A DNA stretch of 53,902 bases from an uncultured Candidatus Saccharibacteria bacterium (lineage in GTDB: Bacteria; Patescibacteriota; Minisyncoccia; UBA6257; 2-01-FULL-56-20), in assembly GCA_964361595.1 (NCBI GenBank), contig CAYIAX010000005.1, positions 1 through 53,902 of the forward strand. Reading direction: 5' to 3'. The notes below the pieces were generated by a model. That model saw nothing but the letters and a program-made list of their open reading frames with translations, did no database searches and was not told where the DNA came from. Of this stretch, positions 6,964 through 40,503 are shown in pieces. Within the stretch, counting starts at the first letter, position 1; each line of letters starts with the position of its first letter. Made by a program: the position numbers and the translations under genes.

Positions 6964-8159
6964 TTTGCGGGCGCGTAAAGCGTGTTCAACTCGAGGCGGG
7001 TTTGCGGACCCACTTCGCCGGAAACGGGCAGAATCCCGTATTTTTTTTGAAATTCTTTTACGGCTTTTGCGGTGCAGGAACCAAAAACACCGGTGATGAA
7101 ACAATCTTTTGTTTTGGGCGGTGGGAAAATCCCTTCGGATTTAAGCGCAGCCTGGAGGGCAAGCACATCGCGGCCGCGGCTACCGGATCTTAGATCTTTG
7201 GTCCAAAAATGAGGGAGGAGGGTTGTTTTTTCCGTAACTTCAGCTTCGCCGAAAAAATTCTTAAGGCCGCGGTACGTTTGGAATGCCAATTCCTTTAAGT
7301 AAGCATCTCGAATTGAAGGATCAATGAAAAGAGATTCGTAGATATACCCATATTCGATCAAAGCGACCGCCGAATCCAGTGTGTTGTTGGCGCCGACGGC
7401 AATAAGTTCGTAATCGTCAATAATCGTGCCTCTTTCCTTGGGCAGGGTGCTGGAAGAACGGAAGTTCTTTAGTTCGTCGTCTAAAGCTTCGGCCAGCCTG
7501 CGGCTGGCTTTGGCGTTCGAGAACTGGAAATTGGGAACGTAGATTGAGTAGCCGGAATATTTGCCGGGACTGGACTGTTTGCGTCCGGGATAGTCGTTGA
7601 AATGCAGGTGAATTACGATATCCATCTTCATTTCATTCGCCCATTTATTCAAACCGTAAAGCTTGGTTACGGTTTCGCTCGAGGCATAGCCGTGATCAAT
7701 TTGATTTTCGAGAGATAATTTACCCGCTTTCACCGCTGCCTCGAGCACGGATTTATAGGTGAGCTGAAAATTTCTGATATTTTCCTTTTCTTTCAAGAAA
7801 TAATCTGCAAATCCCGATTCATAACCGTTGCGGCTGCGGACCAAGGTAACCGCAAATGCGGGGTCCTTAGCCAAAATTTCGGCCAGGTATTCGCCGGTTT
7901 GAGCGGTTAACCCCGCTTCTTTAAGCCCGCGGAAAGCCGTTCCGAATGCTTCATCGTCGTGGCCGGGGACGATCATGATTTTCACCTTCGTCCGTCCGGC
8001 CTTGGCTTCGCTCCAGCGCTGCTGCAGTTGGGCTTCAGTTATGCTTTCCGTAAATAAGATTCCACCCAAAAAGTCTTCCAACTTAGATTGCGGCAGTACG
8101 GCATTGGAGGCGGTTACGAGGTAACTCAAAAGTGAAAAGATTAAGGCGGCAGTTCCCAT
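6960..8159 (-). CDS. Secreted N-acetylmuramoyl-L-alanine amidase (Amidase_3) with C-terminal peptidoglycan-binding domain
   Basis: Signal peptide, IVPGH, IHLHFN, ALIEYGY, DVLALQ..L..G.FG..T..AVKEFQ. Confidence 0.8.
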   Translation of the reverse strand: MGTAALIFSLLSYLVTASNAVLPQSKLEDFLGGILFTESITEAQLQQRWSEAKAGRTKVKIMIVPGHDDEAFGTAFRGLKEAGLTAQTGEYLAEILAKDPAFAVTLVRSRNGYESGFADYFLKEKENIRNFQLTYKSVLEAAVKAGKLSLENQIDHGYASSETVTKLYGLNKWANEMKMDIVIHLHFNDYPGRKQSSPGKYSGYSIYVPNFQFSNAKASRRLAEALDDELKNFRSSSTLPKERGTIIDDYELIAVGANNTLDSAVALIEYGYIYESLFIDPSIRDAYLKELAFQTYRGLKNFFGEAEVTEKTTLLPHFWTKDLRSGSRGRDVLALQAALKSEGIFPPPKTKDCFITGVFGSCTAKAVKEFQKKYGILPVSGEVGPQTRLELNTLYAPAN

Positions 8160-33642: not shown

Positions 33643-33978
33643 GTGAAAATCAGCATTAAAGCTTTACAGCTCAAGCTCACTCCAAGCATTACGACTTTTA
33701 TCGAAGACAAGCTCGGTACGTTGGCCAAGTATTTGAAGAAATTCGAGCCCACCGGCCAGCCGGCGATCTGGCTCGAGATCATGAGAACCACCCGCCATCA
33801 CAAGCGCGGTTTTGTTTATGCCGCGGAGGCCGATTTGCGCTTGCCGGGAAAAATTTTGCGCGCGGAGCACGAGGACGTGGATATCCGCGTGGCGATCCAG
33901 CGTTTGCGCGATAAGCTTAAGCTTGAGATCGAAAAGTATAAGACGAAGACCGGGGAACGTCCGCGCCGAGCCGCTTAA
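33643..33978 (+). CDS. hpf: Ribosome hibernation factor HPF/RaiA
   Basis: [29 protein letters not shown]...AI; upstream of secA. Confidence 0.85.
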
Positions 33979-33995: not shown

Positions 33996-36554
33996 ATGCT
34001 TGATTCGCTTAAAAAATTTTTCAGTTCGCGTTCTTTAAGCGGATTTTTTGAGACCGTTAAAACCATAAACGCGCTCGAGCCGGAAATCCAGAAACTTTCT
34101 AATGAGGAATTGAAGCAAGCTGGTTTGGATTTAAAAAAATCCGTAGAAGGCGGGGAGCCGACTGAAGACGAACGGGCAAAAGCATTCGCGCTTGTGCGCG
34201 AAGCCGCGCGGCGCACCTTAAACCAGCGCCCTTATGACGTCCAGCTTGTGGGCGGGCTTGTGCTTGACAAGGGCGCCGTGGCGGAAATGGCCACGGGCGA
34301 AGGAAAAACTTTGGCCGCGGTCGCGCCCGCATACTGGAACGCGCTTAGAGGCAAAGGAGCGCATATCGTAACCGTGAACGAATACCTGGCCCGCCGCGAT
34401 GCGGTTTGGATGGGACAGATCTACCGCAGGCTGGGGCTCTCGGTTGCTTGTCTCGTGCCCAACGCAGCCTTCTTATACGACTCTGAATGGAAGATACCGG
34501 AGGAAGGCGAGAAGTTGATTGACCGCGAGCGGGACGAAACAGGCAGCTTCTTGGTCCAGCAGGAATTTTTGCGCCCGATCTCCAGGCGTGAAGCCTATTT
34601 GGCCGATATCACCTATGGCACGAACCACGAATTCGGTTTTGACTATTTGCGCGATAACCTGGCCTACCACATGGCCGACCAGGTCCAGCGCGAGCATTAT
34701 TTTGCAATTATTGACGAGGTAGATTCGATTTTAATTGATGAAGCGCGCACGCCCTTGATTATCGCCGCGCCCGATACGGAATCGAGCGAATATTATAAAG
34801 TGTTTGCCCGCGTGGCGGAAATGCTCACGCCCGAAGAGGATTACACCGTTGACGAGAAGCACCGTTCGGCGAGCATTACCGAGAGCGGTATCGAAAAAAC
34901 GGAAAAATCATTGGGGCTTGCGAATCTCTACGGGCCGGAAAATCTGCGCCTTGTGCATTATCTTGAAGAAAGCTTGCGGGCCAAAGCGCTTTATCATCGC
35001 GACCGCGATTACGTGGTGAAGGGCGGCGAAGTTTTGATCGTGGACGAGTTCACGGGCCGCTTACTTCACGGCCGCCGCTATCAGGGCGGTCTCCATCAGG
35101 CGATTGAAGCCAAAGAGAGCGTCCAGGTAAAACAGGAATCACGAACTTACGGCAAGATTTCCCTCCAAAATTATTTCCGGCTCTACAAAAAGATTTCCGG
35201 CATGACCGGCACGGCGCAAACTTCCGCGGAGGAATTCCATAAGGTTTACAACCTGGAGGTATTTTCGATCCCGACGAATAAGCCGATGATCCGCGAAGAC
35301 AAGAATGATTTGATCTATAAAAATTCGCAGGCGAAGTGGCGCGCCTTGATCGAAGATATTCGTGTGCGCCATAAGCAGAGCCAGCCGATCCTGATCGGTA
35401 CGGCTTCAATCGAAAAGAATGAATTGGTTTCCGCGCACTTGTCGCGCGAGCACATTCCGCACGAAGTTTTAAATGCTAAGAACAACGAACGCGAAGGCGC
35501 GATCATCGCCCAGGCCGGCAAACCGGGCGCGGTAACTGTGGCGACGAATATGGCCGGCCGCGGCGTGGACATTATTCTCGGAGGCAACCCTCCAAGCGCA
35601 GACTTAGCGCAGACTGTACGCGGACTTGGCGGACTCCACGTGGTTGGCACCGAACGGCACGAAGCCCGCCGGATCGACAACCAGCTGCGCGGCCGTTCCG
35701 GCCGTCAAGGCGATCAGGGCAGTTCGCAATTCTATCTTTCGCTTGAAGACGATCTCTTGCGCATCTTTGGCGGCGACCGCATTAAGTCGCTCATGGATCG
35801 CTTCGATCTGCCTGAAGACGAACCGATCCAGCTCGGCTTTGTCTCCAGCGCGGTGGCGCAGGCGCAGGCGCGCGTCGAGGGCGCGAATTTCGACTTGCGG
35901 AAACATTTGCTCGAATACGATGACGTTTTGAATAAACAGCGCACGGCGGTATATAAGCGGCGGCAGGAATTTTTGACGAGCCTGAACCAGGAAACTTTGG
36001 CTGACAGCATTTACCAAGCTGCCCATGATTTTGTTGGTAGATTCAGGGAACAGCCGGCCATGGAACCGGAAACGGATCTGGACGCCGAATTCAAAAAGCT
36101 GCTCCAGGAAACCGGCATTGCGAACGAGAAGCATCCGGTTCCGGAAAATTTAGACGAGGAAAGCATTAAGAGTTTGCTTTTGAAGCGGAGTCTCGAAGCT
36201 AGTCTTGATCCACTTACGATCCAAAGGATTTTGGGCGTGCTCGATATGCTTTGGATGACGCACTTGGAAAACCTCGAGGCGCTTTCCGAATCCGTCGGCC
36301 TTCGCGCCTATGGGCAAAAGGATCCGCTTGTCGAATATCGCGAAGAAGCGCGAAAATTATTCAAAGACTTTTGGGCTAATTTCAACGCTTGGCTCACGAT
36401 GAATATATTTAAACTAGCAAAGAGCAAAGAGCAAATGGCAAATAGTAAAAAGGCGGGCTTGCCCGCCGGAGGGCAGAGCGGCGCGAAGGTAGGTCGCAAC
36501 GACCCCTGCCCATGCGGTTCAGGGAAGAAATATAAGAGATGTCATGGGGCGTGA
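33996..36554 (+). CDS. secA: Preprotein translocase ATPase SecA
   Basis: [40 protein letters not shown]-terminal [19 protein letters not shown]. Confidence 0.98.
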
Positions 36555-36565
36555 GGAATAAAAAT

Positions 36566-37012
36566 ATGGAAACGAAACAGGTAAAAATTAGAAATGCGGA
36601 AACTAATGACATTGAAGCAATTCGAGGATTGGTTGATTATCTTATGCAAGTTGAAGAGGTAGAGAATGTTGAGGGCAACGTTGAAAAAATAATGAAAGAT
36701 AGGATTCTGCCATCGATAGATTCTGATACAGCGATAACTTTTGTAGCAGAGGTTGGTGGTAAAGTTGTAGGAGTATTACTGGTAGAGATAAAGCGAGGTT
36801 TGGTTCTGTCACTGGCGTACATAGCAGTTTATCCAGAAAATCAGAAACTAGGAGTTGGTAAAAAATTGCTGGAAAAAGCCGAAGAATACGCCAAGAGTAA
36901 AAATATCCATATTTTGGAGGGACTGATTCACAAAGACAATCAAAAATCGCGAGAATTTCACGAAAAAAATGGATTTGAACTGTTTGGCTACAATTTGCGG
37001 AAAGAAATTTAG
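36566..37012 (+). CDS. GNAT-family N-acetyltransferase (cassette 1)
   Basis: IRNAE..DIEAI, IAV.PENQKLGVGKKLL, N..SREFHEKNGF. Confidence 0.88.
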   Translation: METKQVKIRNAETNDIEAIRGLVDYLMQVEEVENVEGNVEKIMKDRILPSIDSDTAITFVAEVGGKVVGVLLVEIKRGLVLSLAYIAVYPENQKLGVGKKLLEKAEEYAKSKNIHILEGLIHKDNQKSREFHEKNGFELFGYNLRKEI

Positions 37013-37125
37013 CCGCATGACATTTTCTATATTCAGACGAATCCGACAGTGTCATAAATCGGAAAACGGCTTAAAATATAGAAAATCCGTGCGGTTGGTT
37101 ATTAAAACAGTAGAAGTGTCACGGG
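37013..37125. repeat. 113-bp hairpin-plus-core site, copy 1
   Basis: CCGCATGACATTTTCTATATT pairs with AATATAGAAAATCCGTGCGG; homologous to 39153-39265. Confidence 0.85.
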
Positions 37126-37207
37126 TCATGAGGATAAGAAAAACCCGAGGGACATAGTAGCTTCCGTCAGTCGGCTACATCACCCTCGGGGGAGTAACAG
37201 AGATGTT

Positions 37208-37630
37208 ATGGGAGAAAAAAAGCAAAAACTAACTGGAATAACATTTATTCTCGTGCGTCCGAATAGTGAGATGCTACTTCAGTTACGAGACGAAAAATCA
37301 AGATATTATCCTAATACGTGGTGTTTCCCCGGAGAGAGTGCCGAGGGGAACGAAGAGCCCATACAGATGGTTATTCGAGGAGTGCAGGAGGAATACAATG
37401 TTCGGGTATCAAAAAATATATGTCAATTTCTGACCGTAAATCATTTGCCACATATTAACCAAGAAATCGCTGTATTTATATGCAAAATCGATGATAATCA
37501 AACTCCAGTTATGAGAGAAGGGAAGAAAATGCGATGGATGGGTATAAATGAGATTAAGAAACTGGAGCTCGGATTTGAGCAGAATAAAATTCTACCATTC
37601 ATCGAAGAGTTCCTGCGTGGTAGTCAATAA
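37208..37630 (+). CDS. NUDIX-family hydrolase (cassette 2)
   Basis: LLQLRD, WCFPGESAEGNEEP..IRGVQEEY (degenerate Nudix box). Confidence 0.8.
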   Translation: MGEKKQKLTGITFILVRPNSEMLLQLRDEKSRYYPNTWCFPGESAEGNEEPIQMVIRGVQEEYNVRVSKNICQFLTVNHLPHINQEIAVFICKIDDNQTPVMREGKKMRWMGINEIKKLELGFEQNKILPFIEEFLRGSQ

Positions 37631-37663
37631 GCAACAAAGATGTCATGGGGCGTAGGGTAAAAT

Positions 37664-38602
37664 ATGATATACAATCCTGAAAAACCATATAAAGAACAAA
37701 TTCTGGGATTAATTAAAAAAACTTGGAATACTCCTTATGTTTCTATTCATGATGGAGCATATTCGGTATTCAGAAGAAAATTCGATTACCCTGAAGTTGA
37801 TCATACAGACGGAATAGGAACAAAGGGAATATACCACTGGAAGAAGCGCAGCTTCAAAGGCGCTGTTTTGGACGCTTTGGCAATGAATTTGAACGATCTG
37901 GCAATGGCAAGAGCCGTTCCATATAAGCTTCAGTGCCATATTATTGTGCCCGAAGATGACCAGAGAGCGATTATGGAGATCATAAAGAGTTTGGTTACGG
38001 AGTGCATGAAACTAAAAATCGCTATTACCGGAGGAGAGACATCGGTTCAAAACAATATGGACGGTCTTGATATCAGTTTGACGGTTAGCGGATTTGTGCG
38101 AAGAGAGAAGCGAAACAAATTTCAGGCGGGTGATATATTAGTTGGTTTCGCAAGTAATGGGTTGCATTCGAATGGGTTTACGATGGTACGAAATGCGTTT
38201 GCTAATAGATTCCGCAAAGAGCTTATAGAGCCAACAGTGATGTATTTGAAGTCAATTCAGGATATTCAGGAAAGGTATGACATTCATGGCATGATGCATA
38301 TAACCGGTGGGGCGTTTACAAGGTTGAAAGGGTTGCTCTCAAAAACTGATGCGGTTATCACGAATGATCATTCTTTGAAACCACAGGGCATATTTCGGGA
38401 ATTATATGCACATAGAATTACAGATCGCGACATGTACAAGACTTTCAACTGCGGAATAGGATTTATATTGGCAGTTTCCAAGAAAGACGCTCTGGGAATT
38501 GTTACCCAAATAAAAGGCGCAGACATAATTGGAGAAGTTACGCAGGGATCGGGAAAGGTCAGGATAGCGTCAATGTTCAGCGGAAAGAGAATAAAAATTT
38601 GA
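37664..38602 (+). CDS. PurM-like (AIR synthase family) protein, copy 2 (cassette 3)
   Basis: YPEVDHTDGIGTKG, DALAMNLNDLA, GGET, SNGLHSNG, HITGG, TFNCGIG. Confidence 0.85.
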   Translation: MIYNPEKPYKEQILGLIKKTWNTPYVSIHDGAYSVFRRKFDYPEVDHTDGIGTKGIYHWKKRSFKGAVLDALAMNLNDLAMARAVPYKLQCHIIVPEDDQRAIMEIIKSLVTECMKLKIAITGGETSVQNNMDGLDISLTVSGFVRREKRNKFQAGDILVGFASNGLHSNGFTMVRNAFANRFRKELIEPTVMYLKSIQDIQERYDIHGMMHITGGAFTRLKGLLSKTDAVITNDHSLKPQGIFRELYAHRITDRDMYKTFNCGIGFILAVSKKDALGIVTQIKGADIIGEVTQGSGKVRIASMFSGKRIKI

Positions 38603-38644
38603 ACCCCGTGGGTTAGCGAATAAGTAGCAAAGGTGTCATGGGCA

Positions 38645-39160
38645 ATGAGGAAAGAATATAACAAAGAGTCGTGGATAAATCCAAAAGTTGAAGTCCGAAA
38701 TTCAGAGTTCGGTGGTAAGGGTTTATTCGCTAAAGAAACGATAGAAAAGGATGAGATTGTGATAGTATGGGGAGGAACATTAATGACGGAAGAAACGATA
38801 AAGAGGGGTAATTACAGAAAAGGTACGAGCGTCGAGATAGGCGAGGGTATGTATTTTGCTGGAAAGCCAAGCGAATCGCCAGGAACTGATGACTTCTTGA
38901 ATCATTCTTGCGATCCCAACTTATGGCTAAAGGATGAAGTTACGCTGATTATGAGAAGGGATATTGAAAAAGATGAGGAGTTGACTGCTGATTATGGAAC
39001 ATGGGTCTCACGACCAGAGTGGAAAATGGAATGCAGATGTGGATCGAGGTTATGTCGAAAAATGATCACAGGCAACGATTGGAAGTCAGCAGGGCTGCAA
39101 AAAGGATACGGAGACCACTTGTCGCCGTATCTAAAAGAACGAATCAAAAAATCCGCATGA
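38645..39160 (+). CDS. SET-domain methyltransferase with post-SET CxCxxxxC (cassette 4)
   Basis: GKGLFA, FLNHSCDPN, ELTADYG, CRCGSRLCR. Confidence 0.92.
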   Translation: MRKEYNKESWINPKVEVRNSEFGGKGLFAKETIEKDEIVIVWGGTLMTEETIKRGNYRKGTSVEIGEGMYFAGKPSESPGTDDFLNHSCDPNLWLKDEVTLIMRRDIEKDEELTADYGTWVSRPEWKMECRCGSRLCRKMITGNDWKSAGLQKGYGDHLSPYLKERIKKSA

Positions 39161-39265
39161 CATTTTCTATATTCAGGCAAATCGGATTGGTAATCGATAC
39201 GAAAAATGGCTTAAAATAAAGAAAGTCCGTGCGGTTGTTTATTAAAAAGGCAGCATTGTCATGGG
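39153..39265. repeat. 113-bp hairpin-plus-core site, copy 2
   Basis: Same length and ends as 37013-37125. Confidence 0.85.
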
Positions 39266-39352
39266 AAAAAGTTCTTATAAAAATAATCATTCTCACATTC
39301 TCAAGAATGTGAGAATGTTGTATGGAAACATTTCTACAGAATCAATAAATCT

Positions 39353-39886
39353 ATGCGCATAAATGTCGGTTCGAAAAATCAAACGAAGGCGCAGGCGGTA
39401 GCGGAAGCCCTATCCGGACACGAATTGTTTAAAGATGCCGAGGTGGTGGGCGTTGATGTGGCGAGCGAACAATTTGGCCATCCGATTAAACTGGCGATCG
39501 TGGTCAAGGGCGCAATGGACAGAGCGAAGCAAGCATTCAAGGATTGCGATTATAGCTTTGGCATTGAAGGCGGTTTGATTGAAGTGCCGGAAACAAAAAG
39601 CGGTTATATGGAAGTTGCTATCTGCGCTATCTATGATGGTTCGCAATTCCATCTCGGCATGTCGCCCGGTTACGAATGGCCCAAAACAGTTACGGATTTA
39701 ATCGTGAATAAAGGCTTGGATGGCAGCCAGGCTTTGCGCGAAGCCGGATTTACAAGCCATGAGAAGATCGGCACGGCCGAAGGCGGAATTTGAATTTTAA
39801 CCAAAGGTAAAATTAATAGAAAAGAATATAACAAACTCGCTGTGCTTATGGCCCTTATCCATTTGGAGAATAAGGAGCATTACTGA
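39353..39886 (+). pseudogene. yjjX: Inosine/xanthosine triphosphatase (YjjX/DUF84) with in-frame TGA at 39791
   Basis: VGSKN..K, GAMDRA, GIEGG; homology appears to continue past the stop (GGI*ILTKGKINR...). Confidence 0.7.
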
Positions 39887-40418: not shown

Positions 40419-40503
40419 TGGAAAAGCACATTCTAACATTCTGCAGAATGTTAGAATGTTTGTGTTTTCTAATTCGCGCGAATTAGAAAATATAACTAGC
40501 AAT

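Follow-up and report, generated by a model that had tools for sequence, protein, structure and literature searches.

Some integrative islands and prophages insert into tRNA or protein genes at their 3′ ends and rebuild the gene in doing so, and tandem accretion with repeated 3′-end fragments is known from Prochlorococcus. Xer-dependent elements include the integrative mobile elements exploiting Xer (IMEX) at dif and the pdif modules on Acinetobacter plasmids, and the minimal mobile elements of Neisseria move without an enzyme of their own, with long conserved flanking genes serving as homology. Candidate-phyla-radiation (CPR) genomes are smaller than 1 Mb and contain few recognizable mobile elements, and how these bacteria sample accessory genes is poorly understood. 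Here we analyze a 53,902-nt stretch of DNA from an uncultured groundwater Candidatus Saccharibacteria bacterium (contig CAYIAX010000005.1; hereafter, the window), in which an array of single-gene cassettes lies behind secA and is bounded by sites resembling the DNA that encodes the SEC-C zinc motif of SecA. The genome to which the window belongs, as contig C5 (G000; 778 kb in 23 contigs), is 99.9% complete as judged by marker genes. An earlier note on this DNA, made from its letters alone, had described a co-oriented array with one gene per site attached to the DNA for the SecA zinc motif, and our results support that description. We favor, with a confidence somewhat above even, the reading that the region at 36.5–39.3 kb consists of four promoterless single-gene cassettes that were added stepwise to the 3′ end of secA by site recombination.

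In function and layout, the closest described system would seem to be the integron; in the restoration of a 3′ end, the gene-end-targeting islands; and in the lack of an enzyme of its own, the Xer-dependent modules or the Neisseria elements. As in integrons and clusters of attC sites lacking integron integrases (CALINs), most units here are single, co-oriented genes that look promoterless, and each precedes a recombination-type site of its own; one fixed site beside a transcribed gene anchors the array, the cassette content varies between genomes, and a site can overlap the 3′ end of a cassette open reading frame (ORF). Unlike integrons, the locus has no IntI, no RYYYAAC/GTTRRRY cores, no folded attC, and no recombinase beside the array. 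Its sites, ~50 nt in length and seemingly double-stranded, share homology with the 3′ coding end of an essential gene, and its attachment site lies inside coding sequence that must stay intact.

The other systems each share part of this layout. As with 3′-end-targeting islands, the incoming DNA would carry a copy of the target 3′ end, the gene is left intact, and displaced copies form direct repeats; however, islands span several kb and encode their own integrase, whereas the units here are 0.3–1-kb single genes without an integrase, and the mimics of the target form conserved families across genera. IMEX and pdif modules likewise lack a recombinase of their own, are small, and are bounded by short sites, and a housekeeping tyrosine recombinase of the kind they use is matched in 39 of 41 genomes related to ours, but the sites here have no recognizable 11-6-11 structure, are direct rather than alternating, and target secA rather than dif. 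The Neisseria elements resemble the present locus in placing different genes at the same position between conserved anchors without an own enzyme; they differ in that the right anchor here would be a ~50-nt mimic and that cassettes stack into arrays. Hairpin elements just behind stop codons, and a Y1 gene at the array position of one locus (L217), recall the repetitive extragenic palindromic (REP) sequences and their RAYT/IS200 transposases, but a hairpin is missing from most of the secA-array sites, as is a Y1 gene from this genome. Full-text literature searches, screened by titles and the openings of abstracts, returned no description of cassettes behind secA or of SEC-C-like recombination sites, and the earlier note, too, had not recognized the layout as a described system.

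The cassette array behind secA

The secA gene occupies positions 33996–36554 of the forward strand, has homologs in 40 of the 41 related genomes, and is the sole carrier of a SEC-C motif in its genome. The closest SecA among these 40 relatives is 70% identical, indicating that close relatives are absent. All five two-part sites claimed by the earlier note are present on the forward strand where it had placed them: CCATGCGGTT-N20-TGTCATGGG at 36510–36548 (site 1), CCGTGCGGTT-N20-TGTCACGGG at 37087–37125 (site 2), TCCTGCGTGG-N20-TGTCATGGG at 37611–37649 (site 3), CCGTGGGTT-N19-TGTCATGGG at 38606–38642 (site 4), and CCGTGCGGTT-N20-TGTCATGGG at 39227–39265 (site 5). The 16-nt identity it reported between site 1, within secA, and site 3 (AGATGTCATGGGGCGT) is likewise real, and no run common to the secA end and any cassette site of the window is longer; over 51 nt, the sites of the array are 61–71% identical. 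TGTCAYGGG occurs five times in the window, always on the forward strand and always at a site (100 shuffles: mean 0.32, maximum 2), and eight times in the whole genome. Within the 778-kb genome, the two-part site is confined to this array.

In their full extent, the sites fall into a coding end, a short type, and a long type, all in the orientation of secA. Site 1, the coding end of secA (36510–36554), comprises the left box CCATGCGG and the core TGTCATGG (36540–36547) followed by GCG and the stop TGA, which runs into the GAGGA ribosome-binding site of cassette 1. The short type is represented by site 3 (37611–37655), with TCCTGCGTGG, AATAAG, the core at 37641–37648, and GCG TAG, and by site 4 (38606–38648), with CCGTGGGTT, AATAAG, the core at 38634–38641, and CAA TGA. 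Site 2 (37013–37131) is of the long type, with hairpin arms CCGCATGACATTTTCTATATT / AATATAGAAAATCCGTGCGG and the core TGTCACGG at 37117–37124 followed by TCA TGA; so is site 5 (39153–39280), in which a hairpin element precedes the core at 39257–39264 and the codons AAA AAG TTC TTA TAA. The earlier note had read this last site as CHGKKFL*, correctly, and had taken it for the displaced original end of secA, which, judging from its sequence, it probably is (39257–39280).

Two regularities had escaped that note. In sites 1–4, Cys-His-Gly (CHG) is followed by one codon and an in-frame stop. Moreover, a conserved element of ~113 nt has site 2 at the 3′ end of one copy (37013–37125) and site 5 at that of the other (39153–39265). 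The two copies are 83–91% identical direct repeats (D2, D5), and the left arm of the element corresponds to the right half of the secA site in reverse complement (inverted repeats I2, I3, and I11); this long element is kept in three other loci (L104, L205, and L178). Throughout the window, sites lie 10–25 nt 5′ of start codons, and their stops overlap GAGG-type ribosome-binding sites.

Each interval between sites holds one co-oriented forward-strand gene, and Pfam searches bore out the four assignments that had been made from the translations. Cassette 1 encodes a GNAT acetyltransferase (36566–37012; PF00583, E = 4.7e-16; GC 0.386 in 36501–37000), cassette 2 a NUDIX hydrolase (37208–37630; PF00293, E = 1.7e-8), cassette 3 an AIR-synthase-related, PurM-like protein (37664–38602; PF02769, E = 1.3e-16, and PF00586), and cassette 4 a SET-domain protein (38645–39160; PF00856, E = 5.3e-15). 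Homologs of the SET gene start just 3′ of listed sites in five other loci (L094, L117, L178, L157, and L203). Stop codons do fall in or beside the next element, as had been claimed: the GNAT TAG adjoins the long element, the last codons of the NUDIX gene (FLRGSQ*) lie in site 3 with the TAA of AATAA as their stop, the PurM-like TGA is 3 nt 5′ of site 4, and the SET TGA lies within CCGCATGACA of the long element. The cassettes are also visibly AT-richer, ~10 GC points below their surroundings (GC 0.386–0.420 in 36501–39500 versus 0.496–0.596 in secA at 34001–36500). Promoter-like matches are no commoner in the array than in shuffles (12 versus 9.8), which suggests that the cassettes are promoterless. 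From their co-orientation and the palindrome behind the array, we infer that they would be expressed from the secA promoter up to that palindrome, at 39288–39317.

Recurrence and cargo of the arrays and movement of their cassettes

Among 20 regions downstream of secA that were fetched from related genomes, further SEC-C-like sites were seen behind secA in six by eye and in five at E ≤ 0.01 with a hidden Markov model (HMM) of the site, which was built from 20 core-containing sites. With the C-terminal 300 residues of SecA as the query, a metagenome scan yielded 80 loci, the best of them 63% identical; the secA end was matched in 73, and 64 of those had at least 500 nt downstream. Counting extra sites at E ≤ 0.05, we found 22 in 15 of the 64 loci, all on the secA (forward) strand and within the 367 kb of downstream DNA. 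The same loci served as an internal control, with no extra site in 355 kb of upstream DNA and none on the opposite strand.

We also scanned one genome per species with a pattern of the non-coding sites (AATAA and core fixed), which returned 96 stretches. Single weak matches were spread over many phyla, as by chance. Multi-site arrays came from records labeled as Parcubacteria-type lineages (Kerfeld-, Yanofsky-, Portnoy-, Harrison-, Sungii-, Giovannoni-, Lipton-, and Wildermuthbacteria), as "Saccharibacteria," or simply as "bacterium," plus three short contigs otherwise labeled; most of the arrays are in CPR genomes. Across all loci, at least two co-oriented sites occur in 47 and at least three in 17, with a median spacing of 484 nt, and in no locus do sites occur on both strands; two loci (L076 and L205) have eight sites each at laxer thresholds. 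After removal of three duplicates, 44 arrays remained, 29 of which start at the end of secA and six of which are cut off upstream. From genome to genome, the cassettes change in number, order, and content around sites that persist, which is the variation that the earlier note had proposed to look for.

Of 69 site-to-site intervals, 57 contain an ORF of at least 40 amino acids, and in 53 of these the largest ORF runs in the direction of secA; the other 12 intervals lack such an ORF. For 54 cassette ORFs, the Pfam tally lists 25 of 48 matched families: NUDIX six times, NTP_transf_6 and ASCH three times each, inorganic pyrophosphatase twice, and, once each, Maf, HD_3, GrpB, His_Phos_1, dCMP deaminase, YfbR-like nucleotidase, 2′-5′ RNA ligase, GNAT, SET, AIRS, glyoxalase, and others. 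The 25 of 48 listed for these ORFs include no recombinase family. The theme of the cargo is nucleotide house-cleaning and salvage. CPR organisms are thought to live on scavenged nucleotides, and a cargo of NUDIX, Maf, HD, MazG-like, pyrophosphatase, dCMP deaminase, nucleotidase, and DUF84 proteins points to house-cleaning and salvage functions that are interchangeable.

Individual cassettes are common to distant hosts. Loci L085 and L192 share an ASCH cassette that is 81% identical between them, against 57% for their SecA proteins, and L057 and L095 share a NUDIX cassette that is 85% identical, against 46% for SecA; further such pairs exist. SecA is a slowly evolving protein. That small enzymes are far more alike than the SecA of the same pair of genomes implies an origin more recent than the split of the hosts, and sequence comparison in this way establishes that the cassettes are mobile. 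At ~80–85% DNA identity, the flanks of shared cassettes are no longer alignable, so the exchange point is not readable from them.

Sites are constrained even where they are non-coding. CHG-X-stop is kept in 80 of 89 distinct non-coding sites, compared with 73 of 86 real secA ends, in a set whose logos overstate AATAA and the core through the bias of the HMM and scan pattern; positions that are invariant in the secA codons are kept, and wobble positions vary. Loci found with SecA alone provide a subset of 28 non-coding sites free of the scan-pattern bias: the core is exact in 25, CHG-X-stop is kept in 26, and 11 have stops within the 15 codons before the core. Site types distinct from all secA ends (the long type, the short AATAA type, and a GGACACAGAAATAA type) are common across genera, the long type being found in the window and in L104, L205, L178, and L213. 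If these sites are what we take them to be, short SEC-C-like pseudo-ORFs behind secA are not to be annotated as genes.

The stops of upstream ORFs are phased to the sites, falling at −13 (the TAA of AATAA) in 10 of 52 cases and at −34, just before the left box, in eight. A stop at −13 gives unrelated enzymes like tails (FLRGSQ*, FLRQQK*, APWDSQ*). In five of the 52, the upstream frame runs through the site as a true SEC-C tail; most upstream ORFs end before the site or read it in another frame. The NTP_transf_6 cassette has the same site type at its end in all three copies and differing sites upstream: the site travels with the gene on its 5′ side. Together, the phased stops and the NTP_transf_6 sites define a unit that begins with a last codon, stop, and ribosome-binding site, continues with the gene, and ends with the left part of a site and its core. 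Exchange within or beside the core would be expected to yield such a unit; selection would yield it too, because exchange further left would bring the stops of the mimic into secA.

Folding of single-stranded DNA separates the long from the short sites. On the forward strand, site 2 folds at −19.1 kcal/mol (z = −4.25) and site 5 at z = −2.0, and sites 1, 3, and 4 have no significant fold on either strand with the DNA parameters used (z from −0.65 to +0.61). The hairpin of the long element shows no compensatory change in 25 predicted pairs among five sequences, and no Rfam family matched in the array.

Three enzymes at other loci carry in-frame SEC-C tails that score 28–33 bits against Pfam SEC-C: a cytidylyltransferase (L032:1314–1850), a NUDIX protein (L076:3743–4192), and an NAD-dependent epimerase (L193:2244–3182). 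These look like read-through of a cassette site, and read-through may be how the motif reaches unrelated proteins.

Proposed insertion mechanism and competing explanations

In the reading we favor, each boundary would be a ~50-nt double-stranded site homologous to the DNA for the last ~15 codons of SecA, made up of an optional left box (CCNTGCGG), an A-rich middle, the core TGYCAYGG (Cys-His-Gly), and one codon plus stop. A free cassette, probably circular, would carry one non-coding mimic of the secA-end site, and recombination of this mimic with the real secA end, by exchange in or next to the core, would insert the cassette. The insertion would leave the SecA zinc motif intact while supplying secA with a new last codon and stop and the new gene with a ribosome-binding site. 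Older cassettes, together with the original end (CHGKKFL*, 39257–39280), would be pushed downstream, before the old terminator-like palindrome. The enzyme would act in trans, unlinked to the array. A site-specific recombinase is the most likely agent, and an Xer-like tyrosine recombinase is the only candidate that the genome encodes.

This Xer-like protein, the sole tyrosine recombinase of the genome, is split over two contig ends (C10:23298–23853 and C13:1–414) that overlap by ~55 nt, indicating that the contigs join there. Its gene was matched in 39 of the 41 related genomes, usually as one gene and regardless of whether an array is present. Searches of the genome found no serine recombinase, Y1 HUH transposase (PF01797), or IS110 enzyme. 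A single rve-type transposase (C1:71999–72340) was set aside as an ordinary insertion sequence gene. One dif-like match, ATAA-N6-TTATGTNAA (ATAAAATTAATTATGTCAAAT), lies at C1:150406–150426. The window contains no recombinase, as the earlier note had stated, no Xer-like gene lies near the sites in ~190 other loci examined, and the sites show no recognizable 11-6-11 Xer-type architecture of two ~11-bp arms around a 6–8-bp center; tblastn with both halves of the Xer-like protein against all loci gave a single weak match, in L226. A phage or plasmid carrier was considered and dropped: viral contigs contained one match to the site pattern, without a left box and with an HMM E of 0.1, probably by chance.

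A pair of closely related loci records a natural rearrangement at such a site. L088 (8870–8975) and L098 (3340–3360) are ~91% identical, and L098 has a plain secA end. In L088, 105 extra bases follow CCCATG|CGGA and encode a different tail (CGAKKSDGTPIKYKHCHGK*) and a hairpin, and the old tail sits 3′ of this insert, no longer coding. A long-variant SecA tail followed within 70–140 nt by a canonical-looking remnant is also found in L033, L056, L057, L065, and L203. The L088/L098 pair shows that the end of SecA has been rebuilt by recombination at such sites and that the junction can fall in the left box.

Several observations weigh against site recombination at the secA end as we have drawn it. 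The L088/L098 junction lies in the left box and not in the core, so the exchange point is not fixed, which favors homologous over site-specific recombination. Of the earlier interpretation, the cassette array and the persistent sites stand, and site-specific insertion at TGTCATGG is a proposal that this junction does not bear out. No recombinase is linked to any array in a tblastn search of the ~190 loci with the Xer-like protein. The dif pattern recurs in only 3 of 41 related genomes and, lacking conservation, lends no support to Xer, although this pattern is of the proteobacterial type and the hosts' own dif may differ. Core conservation is partly by construction, since the core is built into both the HMM and the scan pattern. 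Only some of the sites have the left box or AATAA (strict left box in 7 and AATAA in 11 of the 28-site subset), and the counts in that subset leave the right half, namely the A-rich run, core, one codon, and stop, as the universal part. Nine of the 44 arrays have no secA in the 0.7–7 kb of upstream DNA available, making secA the main anchor and not the sole one; in L193, one of these, the first site is the SEC-C tail of the NAD-dependent epimerase. We found no closely related pair differing by exactly one cassette, the two natural differences found being of other kinds. Finally, no excision or circle junction was present in the assembled contigs of four runs from one study, contigs that carry no evidential weight on this point.

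The main rival of site recombination is general, RecA-type exchange after DNA uptake, in which the SEC-C-coding stretch and its mimics would act as portable homology that makes the cassettes mobile, in the manner of the Neisseria minimal mobile elements. We regard it as unlikely, but it draws on much of the same evidence. It needs none of the linked recombinases missing from the ~190 loci, nor any of the integron integrase, serine, HUH, or IS110 enzymes missing from this genome. It accommodates non-coding sites that keep the positions invariant in secA codons while the wobble positions vary, and also an exchange point that is not fixed, with one junction in the left box (L088/L098) and cassette junctions necessarily near the core. 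What speaks against it is the shortness of the homology: sites of one array are only 61–71% identical over 51 nt, the secA end and any cassette site of the window share at most 16 nt in a row, and RecA-type recombination usually needs more than that. The cassette-specific site types (long, short AATAA, and GGACACAGAAATAA), conserved across genera, are also easier to explain if they are recognized as such.

That the region is not mobile at all, and that the sites are decaying tails in an old cluster of SEC-C-tailed small enzymes or of tandem duplications of the secA end, strikes us as highly improbable. The cytidylyltransferase of L032, the NUDIX protein of L076, and the epimerase of L193, which end in a SEC-C motif at 28–33 bits, are what such a cluster should contain, as are the 5 of 52 upstream frames that run through a site in the SEC-C frame. 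Against decay, sites with internal stops still have the core and CHG-X-stop (the latter in 26 of the 28-site subset), and most upstream ORFs end before the site or use another frame. Immobility is at odds with content that differs in almost every genome and with cassettes that are 81–85% identical between hosts whose SecA proteins are 46–57% identical.

We see only a very slim chance that cassettes are cargo between REP-like elements, transposed as single strands by an IS200/RAYT-type HUH enzyme acting on hairpins. One observation in its favor comes from L217 (3618–4307), which carries a 690-nt insertion directly behind secA that is absent from the 99% identical L225 (170–188). The insertion contains a Y1_Tnp gene (IS200/RAYT-like, 26 bits) and is bounded by direct repeats of the hairpin ACTTGGAAACTCGGTTTCCAAGTGG, not by SEC-C-like sites, and we treat it, on its sequence, as a separate REP/RAYT-type event at the same hot spot. 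A conserved hairpin in the long-type sites would fit HUH transposition, as would the REP-like palindrome behind the array, with about a dozen good copies in the genome and ~70 times the depth of the organism in the community. Yet a Y1 transposase is missing from this genome and a hairpin from the short sites, and the long-type hairpin shows no compensatory change in five sequences.

Equally slim, in our estimate, is the prospect that the repeat is simply an expression signal before each gene (for RNA processing, translational coupling, or an operator) and not a recombination site. The position of the sites 10–25 nt before starts, with a stop overlapping a GAGG-type ribosome-binding site, is what such a signal predicts, and expression may be a second role of the sites. 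As their sole function, it fails to account for homology to the coding end of secA and for sites that mark the boundaries of horizontally shared cassettes; nor do the missing Rfam match, the short sites without a predicted fold under DNA parameters, or the promoter-like matches at shuffled frequency speak for it.

An ordinary integron or CALIN that happens to lie behind secA is rejected as next to impossible: it would explain one co-oriented, promoterless-looking gene per site at a median spacing of 484 nt and the imperfect hairpin of the long-type sites, but not sites homologous to secA coding DNA, short sites that are unfolded on either strand (z from −0.65 to +0.61), the absence from 36401–39400 of GTTRRRY and of RYYYAAC on the forward strand (none of either, as the earlier note had reported) and of paired cores on either strand (none; shuffle mean 0.55), or the absence of IntI, TIGR02249 exceeding its cut-off in none of 41 genomes (best 124 bits versus 265), with matches that skip model positions ~180–237. 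By cores and folding, then, the sites are not attC.

Our wider interpretation is tentative, and we place it below even: the arrays may be a gene-capture platform of CPR bacteria that is integron-like without integron parts, that uses either a new recombinase or a hijacked housekeeping Xer, and that grafts SEC-C motifs as a by-product. If it is right, cassettes attach to an essential gene at its coding 3′ end, the SEC-C zinc motif of secA, and cassette sites are ~50-nt double-stranded mimics, not folded attC sites. Recombination would then graft SEC-C zinc tails onto unrelated enzymes, which would explain the presence of the motif on many protein families, and the SEC-C tails on cassette enzymes make this spread of a small motif directly testable. 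If fixed at secA, such a cassette platform would solve, independently and for a second time, the problem that integrons address. There is a fair chance that this site-bounded cassette array will prove to be a new kind of system once its enzyme is known, and the pair of site and enzyme, once found, could serve as a new tool for targeted insertion.

Flanking genes and the palindrome behind the array

The gene 3′ of the array encodes a DUF84 (yjjX-like) NTPase (39353–39793, forward strand; PF01931, E = 6.1e-26). The earlier note had predicted an empty layout with secA directly before this gene, and two loci (L091 and L068) have it. In L141, a DUF84 gene lies 3′ of the last site (7292–7729). The window protein is 73% identical to that of L141, compared with 52% between the two SecA proteins, which raises the possibility that DUF84 is an old cassette and not a fixed neighbor; the secA-DUF84 layout may then be read in that way instead.

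On the other side, hpf, encoding a ribosome hibernation factor, lies directly upstream of secA (33643–33978). A homolog was found by tblastn in ~50 other loci, indicating a stable left flank beside a variable right one.

Among Logan contigs, one from run X1 covers 35678–39113 without any difference and may derive from the source sample. In a low-depth contig of run X2 (2.28), position 39224 is followed by 27 other letters, which resemble another site variant, and then by 38629. This joint could reflect a relative with another cassette order or a repeat artifact, and we do not use it as support.

Behind the array stands a perfect palindrome of ~36 nt, CATTCTCACATTCT..AGAATGTGAGAATG / ACATTCTNACATTCT..AGAATGTNAGAATGT, at about 39285–39320 (inverted repeat I5, 39288–39317). 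It is terminator-like on the reverse strand and probably marks the original end of the secA transcription unit. Among 17 loose matches to it in the genome, about a dozen are good copies, including one at 40426–40462 and others on C1, C3, and C11. In contigs of the community, its summed depth reaches 500–560, compared with ~7 for the organism (~70-fold), with many different flanks, as expected of a REP-like or terminator-like element common to many community members. In other genomes, its right arm adjoins array half-sites (L149, L151, L205, and L224).

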